From positions 1 through 64,000 of the IMG/VR virus record IMGVR_UViG_3300042398_000319: DNA of 64,000 nucleotides. The stretch is one strand, 5' to 3'. The DNA comes from a virus. Positions within the stretch are counted from its first letter, which is position 1. Each line of letters starts with the position of its first letter. The notes beneath the pieces were generated by a model. That model saw nothing but the letters and a program-made list of their open reading frames with translations. It was not told the DNA's origin and did not search any database. Made by a program: the position numbers and the translations under genes. Shown in pieces: positions 22,836-55,591 of this stretch.

Positions 22836-23459
22836 ATGGCTGGATACCTTCAAGGCAGTGGATCAATATCCCTGTCTCAAATTAACTCCGTCTTTGATGG
22901 CCGTGGGCTTAACATAGGGGCTTATAGAGGTACTGCTTGGTATACAGCCGGTGGTGGCTCTGGCACATTTCCAACTTCGGGATCACTTGCTTTTGATTAT
23001 TTTTATGGTAAAGGCCCAAATCCTGCATTTACAGTAGCTTATTCAAGTGGCTTTGGTAATGGTTACTTTATTGATGATGTGTTCTACTCCTTCGGAGAAC
23101 CAGCTGGCGCAGGTATTCGGTGGAATACCAATGGAACTATGGATCAATACGGGTATGATTTTGGATATCAACCTCTTGGGGAAACTTGGGGGAATCCAAC
23201 TACTTCTGGGATAGGCTCAAACTACTGGATTCGGTTTACCCGAACAGCAACAGACGGTTTTGGTGCAGCTGCTGCTTCTACTGCTTCTACTGGTTGGGTT
23301 CAATTAGATTCCCCAGGTAGAGAAATCACTATTTACCAAGCCTCAGCTACCCAAATTAGTGCTACATATACTGTAGAAATATCTTCAAGCTCTTCAGGCT
23401 CACCTGTATTAACTACACGAACTGGTATTACTATTGGACTATCTAATGGTTACCTCTAA
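22836..23459 (+). CDS. putative tail-tip adhesin-like virion protein
   Basis: Gly/aromatic-rich, N-terminal LQGSGSISLSQIN; located after the fibre genes. Confidence 0.45.
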   Translation: MAGYLQGSGSISLSQINSVFDGRGLNIGAYRGTAWYTAGGGSGTFPTSGSLAFDYFYGKGPNPAFTVAYSSGFGNGYFIDDVFYSFGEPAGAGIRWNTNGTMDQYGYDFGYQPLGETWGNPTTSGIGSNYWIRFTRTATDGFGAAAASTASTGWVQLDSPGREITIYQASATQISATYTVEISSSSSGSPVLTTRTGITIGLSNGYL

Positions 23460-23484: not shown

Positions 23485-23513
23485 CAGGAAGTCACTACCT
23501 GACATTTAGTGAC
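23485..23513 (+). ncRNA. predicted H-type pseudoknot upstream of RBS
   Basis: S1 CAGG/CCUG, L1 AA, S2 GUCACUA/UAGUGAC (7 bp), L3 ACAUU. Confidence 0.55.
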
Positions 23514-23533
23514 AATTTAAAAAGGAAATTAAA

Positions 23534-23767
23534 ATGGGAAAAAATGAAAAGACCCCTGTAAATATCGATGGCGTAGAATACAAGTATGAGGACATGAGTC
23601 AGCAACAACAAATGTTGTTAAACCATGTTGCAGACTTAGATCGCAAAATTGACTCCTCTAAATTTAACTTGGATCAACTCCAAGTAGGTCGTAACACGTT
23701 CTTTGATATGCTTAAGAAGGCTTTGTCAGAAGAGCAACCAGCAGAGACTCAACCAGTACCTGCTTAA
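23534..23767 (+). CDS. hypothetical protein (coiled coil)
   Basis: 77 aa, AAGGAA RBS, last gene before a terminator. Confidence 0.7.
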   Translation: MGKNEKTPVNIDGVEYKYEDMSQQQQMLLNHVADLDRKIDSSKFNLDQLQVGRNTFFDMLKKALSEEQPAETQPVPA

Positions 23768-23774
23768 AGTTAAT

Positions 23775-23804
23775 GGTCACCCTGTAAAAAGGGTGGCCTT
23801 TTTT
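23775..23804 (+). terminator. intrinsic terminator ending the tail module
   Basis: GGTCACCCT-gtaaaa-AGGGTGGCC followed by T6. Confidence 0.85.
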
Positions 23805-23809
23805 ATCAA

Positions 23810-23851
23810 AAAAAGTGAGAAAAATGACGTATCTATAATGAAGAAATATCA
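23810..23851 (+). promoter_or_regulatory. early promoter-like direct repeat, copy 1
   Basis: AAAAAGTGAGAAAAATGACGTATCTATAATGAAGAAATATCA, identical to 24016-24057; contains TATAAT. Confidence 0.7.
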
Positions 23852-23892
23852 TAATGATAGAGTACTCAATTTAATAACTTTGAAAGATATTC

Positions 23893-24015
23893 ATGACACA
23901 TGTAGATAAACTGGTTATGGCTCTTGGTAATCGCATCCCTAATTCTCGAAGATTAGCTTTAAAGGACTTAACTCCTGCTGCTATTAATCGTTTATTTAGG
24001 ATGAAAAATACCTAG
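23893..24015 (+). CDS. small hypothetical early protein (40 aa)
   Basis: MTHVDKLVMALGNRIPNSRRLALKDLTPAAINRLFRMKNT*, fills the gap between the two repeats; below the ORF-track cutoff. Confidence 0.5.
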   Translation: MTHVDKLVMALGNRIPNSRRLALKDLTPAAINRLFRMKNT

Positions 24016-24057
24016 AAAAAGTGAGAAAAATGACGTATCTATAATGAAGAAATATCA
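24016..24057 (+). promoter_or_regulatory. early promoter-like direct repeat, copy 2
   Basis: 42-bp exact copy of 23810-23851; similarity continues imperfectly for about 30 bp (AGTACTCAATTTA). Confidence 0.7.
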
Positions 24058-24101
24058 ATAAAGATAAAGTACTCAATTTAGTAAACTTAAGGAAAGTTAA
24101 A

Positions 24102-24365
24102 ATGTTAAAAGTATTAATTGCAGTGTCTATTGCATTATTGTCTAGTACCGCCATGGCATCTAAACATGAAAAGTATGTAGATATGTTAATAGAAGAAGGA
24201 GTTTTTAAAGTAGAAGAAAAGGCTAAAGTTATCTGTCAAATGGATGCTTTAGAGGCTTCATTCTATGCTTTCGATAAGGAATTAAAGAAAGCAAAAGACC
24301 CCTTTGCTGTTAAACCAGTAGATCCCTACAAGGTTATAGCAGTATGTAATAAGAAACACAACTGA
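24102..24365 (+). CDS. hypothetical exported protein
   Basis: Signal-peptide-like MLKVLIAVSIALLSSTAMA; AAGGAA RBS; the TGA stop lies in the hammerhead core. Confidence 0.7.
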   Translation: MLKVLIAVSIALLSSTAMASKHEKYVDMLIEEGVFKVEEKAKVICQMDALEASFYAFDKELKKAKDPFAVKPVDPYKVIAVCNKKHN

Positions 24366-24407
24366 TGAGTCTTTATGAGACGAAACCGCTGAGAAGCGGT
24401 CTTGTGT
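24356..24407 (+). ncRNA. type I hammerhead ribozyme
   Basis: Stem I ACACAA/UUGUGU; core CUGAUGA; stem II GUCU/AGAC; GAAA; stem III CCGCU-GAGA-AGCGG; GUC cleavage triplet, predicted cut after C24401. Confidence 0.92.
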
Positions 24408-24434
24408 ATTTTCCCCTTAACTATGGAGTTTAAA

Positions 24435-24923
24435 ATGAAAAAGTTCTTGATCGCAGTGTCTTTAAGTGTTGCCGCAGTATCCTCTTTTGCAGAAGAATCT
24501 TTCTGTAAACATAAAGAAGTACTTAAGGTAGGCACTTATGGTGCATTAGCAGGTGCAGCAGCATCTTTGTTAATCCCTGGTGCAGGTCCAGTAATTGCTA
24601 CAAGTATTCTTACAGGTACAGTAGTAACTACAGGTAATGTAGCAGTGTGTGCGTTTGATGAGAAGGATCGTAAGGACAAATTAGCTGCATTCAAAAAAGC
24701 TAACTCTGAACCTACATCTTTTGATAAAGCAGTGGCTAAGCCTGTAGAAGATCGTAGCATAACTGATAAAGCTGTAATCAGCCTTACTCAGGACTACGTC
24801 AATGCAGTTGTTAAGCCAGTAGAAGATCGTAGTATTAAAGAGCAAGCAGTTGTTACAATTTCACAAGGCTACACAAAAGCCCAAGAAAGTGTATCAAAAG
24901 CTTACAGTAACCTTACTAAATAA
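24435..24923 (+). CDS. hypothetical exported/membrane protein with glycine-zipper-like segment
   Basis: Signal-peptide-like MKKFLIAVSLSVAAVSSFA; GALAGAAA..PGAG; KPVEDRSI repeated twice; GGAG RBS before ATG 24435. Confidence 0.7.
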   Translation: MKKFLIAVSLSVAAVSSFAEESFCKHKEVLKVGTYGALAGAAASLLIPGAGPVIATSILTGTVVTTGNVAVCAFDEKDRKDKLAAFKKANSEPTSFDKAVAKPVEDRSITDKAVISLTQDYVNAVVKPVEDRSIKEQAVVTISQGYTKAQESVSKAYSNLTK

Positions 24924-24931
24924 GAGGATAT

Positions 24932-25027
24932 ATGTCAGAAACTTTCTTTGATATGGTATTGGCGGTTATAATTGCACTTGTGCTTGTACTCGCTATTCTT
25001 CACGGTTTGGATGCATTAATTTACTAA
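24932..25027 (+). CDS. small membrane protein (31 aa)
   Basis: MSETFFDMVLAVIIALVLVLAILHGLDALIY*; GAGGA RBS. Confidence 0.55.
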   Translation: MSETFFDMVLAVIIALVLVLAILHGLDALIY

Positions 25028-25036
25028 GGATCTGTT

Positions 25037-25144
25037 ATGACATACTTTGTTTATAACAAAAAAGGTTATTTGATTACAACTACTACAAGTGTAGAAGAAC
25101 TGAATAAGTTCCTACCTGAACTAGTAGATGTAATTATTTACTAA
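25037..25144 (+). CDS. small hypothetical protein (35 aa)
   Basis: MTYFVYNKKGYL...IIY*; AAGGA RBS. Confidence 0.5.
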   Translation: MTYFVYNKKGYLITTTTSVEELNKFLPELVDVIIY

Positions 25145-25147
25145 TCC

Positions 25148-25222
25148 TTCTCGGATAGAGAGACCCTCCAGGGTATGTACTGGACTTTCTCAGCAGAGAG
25201 ACCTCTTGGGGTAAGTACCAAG
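25148..25222 (+). ncRNA. tandem structured RNA motif (two units of hairpin plus mini-pseudoknot)
   Basis: Each unit is TTCTC-N4/5-GAGAG-ACC-Y-stem-GGTAWGTA-stem. The stems covary: TCCAG/CTGGA versus CTTGG/CCAAG. Confidence 0.65.
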
Positions 25223-25245
25223 TTCTTTTAATTTTTGGAGTTAAA

Positions 25246-25491
25246 ATGAGTAAATTTCTTTTGTTAAACCCGCTGTATGGAGATAACTTCGGAATTACAG
25301 CGCAAGAAATTATTGAATCATTAGAGGAATTTGGTCTTACCTACATCTTCTCAAATGACACTAAAGGTATACCGGCAATTTATGCCACAAGTAGATCTAA
25401 AGAGTTAATTGAAAGAATGTGTAATGAAGTACAACTTGATGGTTCTATCATCGAGTTTACTACAATCTATGACCAAGTAATCGAGGATTAA
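25246..25491 (+). CDS. hypothetical protein
   Basis: 81 aa, GGAG RBS. Confidence 0.7.
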   Translation: MSKFLLLNPLYGDNFGITAQEIIESLEEFGLTYIFSNDTKGIPAIYATSRSKELIERMCNEVQLDGSIIEFTTIYDQVIED

Positions 25492-25494
25492 ATA

Positions 25495-25749
25495 ATGCCT
25501 AGACTAACTTTAAAAGCTGGTGATTATACCATTGAAGCCGTTCAGTACAATGCCTTTGACTCTGTTGAAGTAACTGTATATGATGACTTCTTACAAGCTG
25601 TAGTATCTCCTAAATTGTATGATGTTAAATCAGCATACATGACTGGAGAAAGTGTAGCTTCTGTTCTTACAGAATCTGCGGAAGATTTCCGTAGAATCTT
25701 TAAAGCAGTTGAAGATCTAGTCTTTGTAGATAAAAAACTTGGAGTTTAA
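25495..25749 (+). CDS. hypothetical protein
   Basis: 84 aa, GAGGA RBS. Confidence 0.7.
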   Translation: MPRLTLKAGDYTIEAVQYNAFDSVEVTVYDDFLQAVVSPKLYDVKSAYMTGESVASVLTESAEDFRRIFKAVEDLVFVDKKLGV

Positions 25750-25750
25750 A

Positions 25751-26005
25751 ATGTGCAATAAATGCTTATTTAATCCTTCACCAGTTAACATTTCAGATGA
25801 AGAAGGTTATGTTTATCAAGTTGGTAAAGAGATCTACAATTATGTTAAGGCTAAACACGAGCCACATTCTTTAGATTTCTTTAATCATGTTGGTAAGGAA
25901 CTTGATCTCTGGAAAGCTAACCCTTTAGCAAATGTCAATCAACGATTTAAGAGAATTGGTCATGTCAACACAATCAGGTACAGCGGGAAAGTCCAAGAAG
26001 TATAA
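25751..26005 (+). CDS. hypothetical protein
   Basis: GGAG RBS before ATG 25751. Confidence 0.65.
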   Translation: MCNKCLFNPSPVNISDEEGYVYQVGKEIYNYVKAKHEPHSLDFFNHVGKELDLWKANPLANVNQRFKRIGHVNTIRYSGKVQEV

Positions 26006-26162
26006 CATATTTCAAATTCTACTTGTAGAATGGTTTATGTACTTCGTAATACTAGTACTACTAGATGGAGACACTAACAGCATGGAGGAATGTGCTGGTG
26101 GTGCTTTCATGTTGTTAGCGCTAATACGAGGCTTCCTTTTTATAAAGAAACAGAAATCTTGA
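25962..26162 (+). CDS. small membrane protein
   Basis: Two hydrophobic segments; start uncertain. Confidence 0.45.
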   Translation: MSTQSGTAGKSKKYNIFQILLVEWFMYFVILVLLDGDTNSMEECAGGAFMLLALIRGFLFIKKQKS

Positions 26163-26195
26163 ACTCCCTGCCAGCGGGAGTATAATCTAGCTGGC
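26163..26195 (+). ncRNA. predicted H-type pseudoknot
   Basis: S1 ACUCCC/GGGAGU, L1 U, S2 GCCAGC/GCUGGC, L3 AUAAUCUA; starts right after a stop codon. Confidence 0.7.
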
Positions 26196-26233
26196 TTTTC
26201 TTATCAAAAATAATAATAACAATAAAGGTATTT

Positions 26234-26323
26234 ATGAACGTTTGGAAAGCATGTCTTATTGTAGGTTTAATTTATCTAGCACGTAAAGTTGTAACTTACA
26301 TGGAGAATGCGGAAGCAGAATAA
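26234..26323 (+). CDS. small hypothetical protein (29 aa)
   Basis: MNVWKACLIVGLIYLARKVVTYMENAEAE*; AAGG RBS; immediately upstream of the RNAP gene. Confidence 0.45.
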   Translation: MNVWKACLIVGLIYLARKVVTYMENAEAE

Positions 26324-26327
26324 AGGA

Positions 26328-28508
26328 ATGACTATAGTTAATAATATATTAGAGAATTTAGTTTCAGATCTTAGAAAAAGACAAGCAGTCTTAAGATCAG
26401 ATCGTAATATTTACACGCATTATCTTAAAGAAGTAGACCCTACTACTCTAGTTGATGTATCGTATCCACACATATTACGAGGTTTAGAAAGACAAGCTAC
26501 TCTAGTAGATATTGTAGCCACCATTGGTCGAAGAGTAAGGCAAATGCTTAATCTTCCTAATGATACTGTGTCAGATGCACAGGTTGGTTGGTTCATATGT
26601 ATTGCTTATATTGAGTGTAATATCCTTACATTCCGATTAAAGTATACCTATAAGAATGGAAAGAAAAGTAAATACAAAGCTTACTTCCTACAGGTTAAAG
26701 ACTGGAAGGCAATTGAACAACTCTGGAGTTTAATTGACCAAAGTAAAGTAGATATCTTTCCATTAAGAGAACAGACTAAGCCTTGGACATCTGCATTTAA
26801 TGTTAATGGTTCACCCATTATTAAGAAAGGCCACCCTAGTGCACTGTCAAAGTTTAGGACTTCAGACAAGCAAGCATTGTTTGATACTCTAAATAAATTA
26901 CAAGCTATTGGATGGCGAATTAACAAGGATGTGTTTACTGTGTATCAGCACTTTTTACATAATCCTTGTCACAATAGCCCTTTCAAGTTACACACAGAGA
27001 TTGATGAAGAGAAGAAACAATCACTTTTGATTGAAGCACAAGGCATTGAAAGACTAGCATTAAATCATCTTGATAATGCTTTTTATCATGTCTATAACTT
27101 TGATTTCAGAGGTCGAGTTTATGTAAATACAGCGTTTCTTCACGAACAATCTAGTGATAATGCAAAGGGCCTACTGTTGCTAGACAAATCAACACCACTA
27201 GGTGAAAACGGTCTGTTCTGGCTAAAGGTACATACGTCAAATTCTTTTGGAAATGACAAGGTGACGCTAAAGCAGAGGGCTGAGTTTGTAGATGAGAATA
27301 TTAATCTATTCTTGTCATATGCAGATAAACCTACTGTTAATCAAGGATGGATGGAAACAGATGCTCCATTTTCTTTTTTAGCTGCTTGTTATGAGCTTAA
27401 GAAAATTAAGAACTGGTTAATGGATGGTAATAACTTAGAAGATTATCCTTGTTCTTTACCTGTATATATTGATGGTTCTAATAACGGTGTCCAGCATCTA
27501 GTTGCTATGTCACAAGATGAAGAGATTGCACCACTAGTTAATTTAGTACCACAAGATACCCCAGGTGATGTGTACATGTATATTGCTAAATACGCATGGA
27601 AACGTTTAGAGGAGCTAGCAAGTCAGCTAACACAAGAGGAACGTGATCAATTTGATAGTGTATACAGTAAGGCTAAAGAGTTACAAAAAGCTTACTTTGA
27701 TGCACCTGAAAAGAGTGAACAAAAATCCTTAGCTTATGCTGCTGCCCAAGAGTGGCGTAATCAGAATCGTTCTATTAGAGAAAAGTTGTTTGCTGTTTAC
27801 TGGCTTAATATTGATAACCCAAAAGATCAACGTAAAGTAGTAAAGAGAAATGTAATGACTCTCGGTTACGGTGGTACTGCGTACGGCATGGGTCAACAAA
27901 TTATTGATGATACCCGTGATATGTCTGAGTATCTTCGTGACAAGGAACACCTCTGGGGTGCTATGTTAGGTGATTTGGTATTTGAGACTTGTTATGAAAA
28001 ACTCAAAGGGCCAGCAACAATGTTACGAATGTTTCAGGACTTAGCGGATAGATCTAATAACAAAGATGTATTCCTACAATGGACTACTCCAGTAACAAAC
28101 TTTCCTGTAGTTCAAGCATATAGAAAACCATCTATTGTTAGAACTAAATTAAAGTACGGTGAAGAAGAACTTAAAGTTCAACTTCAAACATGGGAAGAAT
28201 CAACTATTGATAAAGATTCCCAGAGAACAGGTGCAGCACCAAATATTGTTCACAGTTTTGATGCAGCACACTTGACTATGACTGTATTGTCTGCTCCATA
28301 TGAGATGACTGTTGTTCATGATTCTTTCGGTACCCTGCCTGGAAACATGGATGACTTATTTTATAGAGTAAGAGATCAGTTCGTAGAGTTTTACAAGAGT
28401 AAACCTTTAGAGAAATTACTGGCTGAACTTAATTGTGAAGACCTTATTCCTGAGAGGGGTAATCTCGATGTAAAACAAATATTGTACTCAGATTATGCTT
28501 TTTGTTAA
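26328..28508 (+). CDS. T7-like single-subunit DNA-directed RNA polymerase
   Basis: DFRGRVY, motif A DGSNNGVQH, motif B RKVVKRNVMTLGYG, APNIVHSFDAAH, motif C VHDSF; AAGGA RBS before ATG 26328. Confidence 0.95.
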   Translation: MTIVNNILENLVSDLRKRQAVLRSDRNIYTHYLKEVDPTTLVDVSYPHILRGLERQATLVDIVATIGRRVRQMLNLPNDTVSDAQVGWFICIAYIECNILTFRLKYTYKNGKKSKYKAYFLQVKDWKAIEQLWSLIDQSKVDIFPLREQTKPWTSAFNVNGSPIIKKGHPSALSKFRTSDKQALFDTLNKLQAIGWRINKDVFTVYQHFLHNPCHNSPFKLHTEIDEEKKQSLLIEAQGIERLALNHLDNAFYHVYNFDFRGRVYVNTAFLHEQSSDNAKGLLLLDKSTPLGENGLFWLKVHTSNSFGNDKVTLKQRAEFVDENINLFLSYADKPTVNQGWMETDAPFSFLAACYELKKIKNWLMDGNNLEDYPCSLPVYIDGSNNGVQHLVAMSQDEEIAPLVNLVPQDTPGDVYMYIAKYAWKRLEELASQLTQEERDQFDSVYSKAKELQKAYFDAPEKSEQKSLAYAAAQEWRNQNRSIREKLFAVYWLNIDNPKDQRKVVKRNVMTLGYGGTAYGMGQQIIDDTRDMSEYLRDKEHLWGAMLGDLVFETCYEKLKGPATMLRMFQDLADRSNNKDVFLQWTTPVTNFPVVQAYRKPSIVRTKLKYGEEELKVQLQTWEESTIDKDSQRTGAAPNIVHSFDAAHLTMTVLSAPYEMTVVHDSFGTLPGNMDDLFYRVRDQFVEFYKSKPLEKLLAELNCEDLIPERGNLDVKQILYSDYAFC

Positions 28509-55522: not shown

Positions 55523-55591
55523 AGTGGTATAGTTCAATAGGTAGAATCAGACGTTATCTCTGGAATGTGAGTTCGAGTCCCACTACCGCTC
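55523..55591 (+). ncRNA. tRNA-like element / pseudo-tRNA
   Basis: Acceptor AGTGGTA/TACCGCT, D arm GTTC-AATAGGTA-GAAT, T arm GTGAG-TTCGAGT-CCCAC; short anticodon arm with non-canonical loop CGTTATC; no encoded CCA. Confidence 0.65.

Follow-up and report, generated by a model that had tools for sequence, protein, structure and literature searches.

Hammerhead ribozymes are found clustered between phage and prophage genes, where they flank single genes, and several of them cleave in vitro (Perreault et al. 2011, PLoS Comput Biol, PMC3088659). The role proposed for the phage hammerheads is the processing of long transcripts into gene-length mRNAs; their biological function is unproven (PMC3088659). 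In haloviruses HF1 and HF2, the HHphage ribozyme carries an unusual insertion in its core and depends on high salt, and a 5' end has been mapped within 3 nt of its predicted cut (PMC3088659). Here we describe a complete type I hammerhead ribozyme at positions 24356-24407 (+) of a 64,000-nt stretch of DNA from an uncultured lake phage (positions 1 to 64,000 of IMG/VR record IMGVR_UViG_3300042398_000319), hereafter called the window. The ribozyme lies between two small early genes, and the stop codon of the upstream gene is part of its catalytic core.

The element is like the phage hammerheads described in 2011 in having a consensus core and three helices, in lying between small phage genes near the next start codon, and in the role that is proposed for it. 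The earlier work stresses type II forms, pseudoknot contacts and multi-ribozyme arrays, whereas the window holds a single type I copy with an open stem I of 6 bp and flanking A residues. No mention of stop codons was found in PMC3088659 (the term "stop codon" has 0 occurrences). Like HHphage, the window element lies among the early genes of a lytic virus and only a few nucleotides before a start codon, in what would be a polycistronic early transcript. Unlike HHphage, the window element has a fully consensus core and overlaps the upstream stop codon. The locus is a solid but ordinary example of the kind described in 2011 (PMC3088659).

Every nucleotide of the hammerhead core is present, namely C3 U4 G5 A6 N7 G8 A9, G12 A13 A14, the A15.1-U16.1 pair and H17 (Table 1). 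Stem I has 6 bp, stem II has 4-5 bp beginning with a G-C pair, and stem III has 5 bp in addition to A15.1-U16.1, so that standard pairs flank the core at 10.1-11.1, 1.1-2.1 and 15.1-16.1. Stem I is open while stems II and III are closed by loops, which is the type I topology. The three-way junction is the minimum-free-energy fold of 24350-24412 (z = -3.1), and none of 200 shuffled sequences folded equally well. The hammerhead is also both the minimum-free-energy and the centroid fold when 141 nt or 191 nt of sequence are folded, its pairs having probabilities of 0.6-1.0. It dominates the predicted ensemble, and no alternative "locking" hairpin was predicted at the locus.

The open reading frame (ORF) upstream, 24102..24365, ends within this structure. 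Its stop, the UGA at 24363-24365, supplies core nucleotides U4-G5-A6, and the CUGAUGA strand holds another in-frame UGA at 24366-24368. The last three codons, AAA CAC AAC, supply the 5' strand of stem I, and the stop codon sits 36 nt upstream of the predicted cut. On the other side, the downstream ATG at 24435 lies 33 nt past the cut, and the leader 24402-24470, including the Shine-Dalgarno sequence, is predicted to be unstructured. A first-pass annotation, made from the letters alone, had described a complete type I hammerhead with its core and three stems at these positions, a stop codon shared with CUGAUGA and a coding 5' strand of stem I. The element proved correct to the base, both statements about the overlap hold, and the proposed cleavage at C24401, about 23 nt upstream of the next ribosome binding site, agrees with the GGAG at 24425-24428.

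A descriptor search was carried out that required the core, GAAA, U-H and three helices. It returned a single match in the complete 76,946-bp genome. Loose matches arose in 5/300 shuffled genomes, and a match with helices as long as those observed arose in 0/300. A covariance model, R2, was built from alignment A3, which consists of 24 unrelated IMG/VR contigs and from which the window and its orthologues were left out. R2 scored the window element at 70.9 bits (E = 4.6e-18), the sole credible match in the window and in the genome. The score and the orthologous loci described below both agree with the first-pass description.

Orthologous loci were sought among IMG/VR relatives of the phage RNA polymerase (RNAP), which comprise 26 contigs at 46-93% identity and six more at 31-33%. 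The cassette is common to four distinct contigs, L004 (= L037), L009 (= L036), L010 and L012. In each of them the hammerhead occupies the corresponding position, and the upstream ORF terminates in the core with K(K/Q)HN-UGA. Five more metagenome contigs, one of them a marine assembly, encode the upstream protein family, and in these the ribozyme is flush with the ORF end and scores 67-73 bits with R2. The family is narrow, with six clusters. Five are full-length (60-99% identical) and end in K(K/Q)HN; the remaining one is an aberrant variant of 80 aa. Counting the window, the ribozyme accompanies the upstream gene in 10/10 known copies.

In the nine other loci with the upstream gene, the 52-nt element is identical to that of the window at 49-51 positions (94-98%), while the 240-nt flanks are only 55-80% identical upstream and 80-87% identical downstream. 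The element differs across these loci in three places only. The first pair of stem I changes from A-U to G-U by an A-to-G substitution that keeps the pairing, and stem III carries a compensatory change from C-G to U-A, both in L004, L009 and L159. The third difference is a G-to-U change in loop II, towards the class consensus. Because the element is kept against diverged flanks and its changes preserve or compensate pairing, it is, as judged from these alignments, under purifying selection on RNA structure.

A search of IMG/VR for exact copies of the core and stem II of the window element matched seven stretches, some of them unrelated contigs that carry such hammerheads as tandem sets of three or four. 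A core-only pattern (CTGATGAG, 11 free bases, CGAAAC), with no pairing imposed, matched at least 118 stretches. All survey counts given here and below were drawn among the matches listed for this core-only pattern. Of 138 distinct core-only matches, 100 were complete type I hammerheads by the descriptor, and at least 134 distinct type I hammerheads were obtained from 88 viral contigs. Stem I is exactly 6 bp in 120/140 hits and hairpin II is 13 nt in 125/140. With its 6-bp stem I and 13-nt hairpin II, the window element is by these dimensions a member of a very common phage type I class. The cut site lies 20-39 nt from the next start codon in 85/116 members, and with its 33 nt the window element is typical in this respect. 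One match, L152 9311-9435, is probably a false hammerhead, as it has a 4-bp stem I and very long loops.

The class alignment showed both-sided changes in 13/16 pairs and a covariation score of 0.80, against 0.19 for shuffled and 0.06-0.10 for slid alignments, in rows that the descriptor script had selected for pairing. Covariation of the helices is therefore seen both in the compensatory change of the orthologues and in the class pairs, and the check that is free of pairing is the 100/138 above. The gap-free alignments A2 and A3 show an invariant A on the 5' side of stem I and a near-invariant A on its 3' side, together with one conserved U and one conserved A in loop II. All four, A24355, A24408, U24373 and A24375, are found in the window element. 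Natural hammerheads need a tertiary contact between stem I and loop II at physiological Mg (PMC3088659), and these four nucleotides are candidates for making it.

Hammerheads of the same class also occur as arrays with one copy per gene junction in unrelated contigs: L034/L035 (3), L040 (4), L038 (4), L068 (4), L072 (5), L083 (6) and L095 (4). The stem I hexamer is often identical within a contig while stems II and III differ, as with GGTTAA three times in L034 and GTCTAA four times in L040. A few hexamers are also common overall, such as GGTTAA, found in 13 loci. We considered whether a shared stem I might let the ends of excised segments pair again, for ligation or circularization. This idea does not apply to the window, which has one copy, and it is weakened by the general hexamer preference. 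In L038, a conserved ACCCUAAAUUA box precedes the start codon after each of the four tandem hammerheads (111-140, 491-510, 905-923 and 1274-1308), with no obvious Shine-Dalgarno sequence. The box may serve as a leader signal in a phage with a host that makes no use of Shine-Dalgarno sequences.

Stop positions were surveyed in the 113 class members that have an ORF of 50 aa or more upstream. The rarity of a stop codon in the core, implied in the first-pass annotation, was not borne out. The upstream ORF ends on the ribozyme in 66/113 (58%), and the stop is the exact core UGA in 23/113 (20%), at 23 different loci, which makes it the commonest single position. A further 18 stops overlap the first base of stem I, mostly as a uAG formed from the conserved A-G, 7 are a UAA inside stem I, and 11 lie slightly further in, within stem II. 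Sorted by the conserved ribozyme nucleotides that provide the stop, there are 17 uAG at the base of stem I, 12 UAA in stem I and 23 core UGA. Only 1/113 stops lies beyond the cut site, and it belongs to the doubtful L152 match. This single case among 113 ORFs indicates that cleaved messages keep whole ORFs. The frame that leads to the core UGA is used by 48 of the 66 overlapping ORFs (binomial p = 7e-11 against one third), whereas ORFs that stop further upstream have no frame bias (11, 15 and 21 per frame). The 23/113 and 66/113 counts show that ending in the core is a habit of the class and not a peculiarity of the window locus.

In the proposed mechanism, the early transcript would fold into the three-helix junction and cut itself between C24401 and U24402, turning a bicistronic early RNA into two messages. 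Hammerheads act by transesterification after C17, leaving a 2',3'-cyclic phosphate on the 5' product and a 5'-OH on the 3' product. The upstream mRNA would retain its full ORF, with the stop codon 36 nt before the newly formed 3' end. That end would be the body of stem II and the GC-rich stem III, a plausible shield against 3' exonucleases. The downstream mRNA would begin with a 33-nt unstructured leader bearing the Shine-Dalgarno sequence, and its 5'-OH would be a poor substrate for decay that depends on a 5'-monophosphate. Since their ends differ in this way, the two messages may have different lifetimes. It is highly probable that the element is a genuine hammerhead under selection, and probable that it cuts itself in vivo and parts the two early cistrons. 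That translation has a regulatory role appears doubtful. The suggestion of the first-pass annotation, processing of the early polycistron with modulation by terminating ribosomes, is plausible in that it fits the anatomy and the class-wide statistics; its phrase "without RNase III" is conjecture.

Since the last three codons and the stop lie in stem I and the core, a ribosome finishing the upstream gene must melt the ribozyme. In folding calculations that kept 24350-24378 unpaired, to mimic a terminating ribosome, the hammerhead could not form. Termination and folding or cleavage would thus be mutually exclusive at any instant, as the ribosome must unwind stem I and the core. We wondered whether this arrangement amounts to a translation-gated switch, in which ribosomes on the core UGA, with the tandem UGA as a backup, keep the hammerhead unfolded, and the cut comes when upstream translation stops or is timed after its first rounds. 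The result of the folding calculation is what such a gate predicts, the stop and the last three codons lie in the core and the 5' strand of stem I in all 10 loci, and the counts of 66/113 and 48/66 extend the pattern to the class. The overlap is explained equally well by genome compaction together with selection against ribosomes that run through the ribozyme or past the cut site. Part of the frame bias comes from conserved nucleotides, the A-G before and in stem I and the core UGA, which give ready-made stops. No alternative locked hairpin is predicted at the locus, where the hammerhead fold dominates, and because cleavage is irreversible, transient occupancy by a ribosome could delay the cut and not prevent it. 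On balance a translation-gated switch at this locus seems rather improbable, and so does the coupling of downstream mRNA fate to upstream translation that it would bring. For the class as a whole, three constraints would produce the overlap, namely minimal intergenic space, the need for a complete ORF with its stop, and the avoidance of ribosome run-through. The idea that the ribozyme doubles as a stop module throughout the class, with terminating ribosomes gating or timing cleavage so that each cistron is freed after translation, is a tentative one that we consider unlikely.

Three readings that leave the early messages unprocessed by the element, or processed to another end, were weighed against self-cleavage in this operon. 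A simple loose-consensus scan flags ACCGCUGAGAAGCGGU and its tail CUUGUGUAUU as terminator-like, so that the hairpin at 24385-24400 with a U-rich tail might be an intrinsic terminator and its resemblance to a hammerhead incidental. With only 6 pairs the stem is short, and G residues break up the tail. Moreover, the tail is the 3' strand of stem I, which throughout the class covaries with its 5' partner and in most members is not rich in U, and a terminator would leave the invariant CUGAUGA, the GAAA and stem II unexplained; we regard it as most unlikely. Equally remote is the view that the match arose by chance or that the element is an inactive relic, functionless today. Very many windows were examined, so rare chance motifs are to be expected somewhere, and the Rfam gathering thresholds were not reached, but 0/300 shuffled genomes gave an equal match, the R2 E-value is about 5e-18, and the element is 94-98% identical where its flanks are 55-87% identical, with a compensatory change and the consensus at every core position. 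The remaining possibility is that an active ribozyme forms the portable 3' boundary of a mobile cassette made of the upstream gene and the ribozyme, giving defined RNA ends or ends for RtcB-type ligation and not serving this operon. The ribozyme does accompany every known copy of the upstream gene (10/10), relatives with another upstream mini-gene and a homologous downstream gene are without it, cassettes follow a common promoter element in the mosaic early region, and one stem I hexamer often recurs among the hammerheads of a contig that has several. Yet one hammerhead in the genome makes excision or circularization of a segment impossible here, co-inheritance is unavoidable and says little about function when the upstream gene physically overlaps the ribozyme, and a general preference (GGTTAA in 13 loci) partly accounts for the reuse of hexamers. 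A cassette boundary is accordingly very unlikely, if slightly less so than a terminator or a relic. Processing of the early transcript by self-cleavage remains the preferred reading.

Several observations weigh against that reading. Rfam at gathering thresholds reported no hammerhead over the window, and the check with Rfam hammerhead models that the first-pass annotation had proposed gave no model at its gathering score. In E-value mode, RF00008 (Hammerhead_3) scored 33.5 bits against a gathering score of 48.5 and was misregistered, taking upstream coding sequence as a helix, and RF03152 (RAGATH-1 hammerhead) scored 25.6 against 56.3 in the correct register. The statistics on class pairing rest on the preselected rows noted above. 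In two RNAP relatives, L001 and L011 (87% RNAP identity), a homologue of the downstream gene stands behind a different 36-aa mini-gene and a plain spacer without a ribozyme, so that the element is dispensable for the downstream gene. We infer co-transcription of the flanking genes only from their shared strand and the lack of a convincing terminator. Four freshwater metatranscriptome runs, available as assembled contigs only, cover parts of the early region, but no RNA contig covers 24064-24436, and these data were counted neither for nor against cleavage.

The Rfam hammerhead models are built mostly from eukaryotic and viroid sequences with different arrangements of stem I and loop II. RF00163 (Hammerhead_1) and RF00008 represent the same ribozyme class and core as the window element, which is below the gathering scores of both; the RF00163 match was the weaker in score and was dropped by clan competition. 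A member of a sister class in L038 likewise scores 27.4 against a gathering score of 34 with RF00163. RAGATH-1 is also a type I hammerhead associated with phages and metagenomes, and among the Rfam models RF03152 alone places all three helices in register. Stem II is a single pair in the RAGATH-1 consensus, which also has a 5' hairpin; in the window element stem II has 4-5 bp and there is no convincing 5' hairpin. Membership in RAGATH-1 was rejected on these differences and on the score.

The RNA contigs show no joints and no pile-up of ends; they are assembled contigs, none of which covers the cut. One X20 contig covers 24437-24901, beginning 35 nt past the predicted cut. Runs X20-X23 contain contigs for several early genes of the phage or of close strains (23500-26300). 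In one X20 contig, the promoter-like element at 24016 is linked to another upstream gene, much as in L012, which is consistent with variation of cassettes among co-occurring strains.

The window is part of a complete virus record with direct terminal repeats (76,946 bp, 38% GC), and the same DNA is present in many lake-water metagenomes. A T7-like single-subunit RNAP of 733 aa is encoded at 26307-28508. It is closest, at 50% amino acid identity, to those of the roseophages DSS3_VP1 and DSS3_PM1 (family Naomviridae), and the gene order is that of these phages: tail genes, small early genes, RNAP, replication genes. Judged by its polymerase and gene order, the phage is a freshwater relative of the Naomviridae roseophages. 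A DNA similarity search with 23500-25500 against named phages gave no match, and no hammerhead of this class was found in the 18-kb region around the RNAP of DSS3_VP1 or in more distant RNAP relatives. The window's only match at an Rfam gathering threshold is a tRNA-like gene at 55523-55591 (36.6 bits), the anticodon region of which is shortened in the alignment.

The early block begins after a strong terminator-like hairpin at 23775-23798. Each copy of a duplicated 42-bp element precedes a small gene (Table 1), and ORF 24102 follows the second copy after 45 nt, so that the ribozyme falls between the first and second gene behind the element. Many RNAP-related contigs whose early genes are otherwise different keep the 42-bp element at 88-95% conservation, which points to a shared promoter-like element before swappable cassettes; beyond the contigs described above, the remaining RNAP relatives have only this element in common with the window. 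The copy at 24016-24057 is a candidate early promoter of the ribozyme-bearing transcript. Since the ribozyme is found with the upstream gene and is missing in L001 and L011, it is an accessory feature that travels with that gene.

Table 1. Features of the hammerhead locus and its surroundings, in window coordinates
Feature	Positions	Strand	Basis or remark
Exact 42-bp duplicate containing TATAAT, family D2	23810-23851 and 24016-24057	+	100% identical; partial third copy at 23367-23383
Upstream early ORF, 87 aa, signal-peptide-like N-terminus, ends KKHN-UGA	24102..24365	+	ORF list
Conserved A directly 5' of stem I	24355	+	Invariant column 5 in class alignments A2 and A3; candidate tertiary-contact nucleotide
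Stem I, 5' strand ACACAA, coding	24356-24361	+	Sequence, fold, descriptor search
Core strand C3-A9, CUGAUGA	24362-24368	+	Invariant in every orthologue
Stem-loop II, GUCUUUAUGAGAC, 13-nt hairpin, 4-5 bp, U-rich loop	24369-24381	+	Fold, descriptor, class alignment
Core strand G12 A13 A14 A15.1 (GAAA)	24382-24385	+	Invariant in orthologues and class
Stem-loop III, CCGCUGAGAAGCGG (CCGCU-GAGA-AGCGG), 14 nt, GC-rich hairpin	24386-24399	+	Fold, descriptor
U16.1 and C17, predicted scissile bond C24401/U24402	24400-24401	+	Hammerhead consensus position
Stem I, 3' strand UUGUGU, predicted 5'-OH end of downstream RNA	24402-24407	+	Fold, descriptor; conserved A next at 24408
Shine-Dalgarno GGAG of downstream gene	24425-24428	+	23 nt past predicted cleavage site
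Downstream early ORF, 162 aa, signal-peptide-like N-terminus, Gly/Ala-rich hydrophobic segment, internal 75-nt tandem repeat	24435..24923	+	ORF list

No credible Pfam or PHROG family was found for either protein flanking the ribozyme. The starts of the two genes are 78% identical in DNA (24097-24128 and 24430-24461), and both encode signal-peptide-like N-termini; the genes may be diverged paralogues or may have a common export signal. Within the downstream gene, 24726-24797 and 24801-24872 form a tandem duplication of 72-75 nt (71% identity) that gives a repeated KPVEDRSI... peptide. The length of the downstream protein varies at this duplication, relatives having 136-146 aa against 162 aa in the window. 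Further along, just upstream of ORF 25246, a motif made of AGAGAGACC, a short stem and GGUAWGUAC occurs as two tandem units (25157-25180 and 25195-25218) with differing stem sequences. Neither this tandem motif nor the rest of 24900-26350 had an Rfam match at E <= 1.

These results add a hammerhead to a phage lineage, the freshwater relatives of Naomviridae, that was without an annotated one, and the element is missed by Rfam at its curated thresholds. The class survey is of wider use, since it provides a consensus, a spacing of 20-39 nt to the next start codon and a strong tendency of upstream ORFs to stop on the ribozyme in the frame of the core UGA. If terminating ribosomes do gate cleavage across the class, which we doubt, this would be a general mechanism of translation-coupled mRNA processing in phages. 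The regularities of the class make the purpose of phage hammerheads, including a coupling of termination and self-cleavage, more testable.

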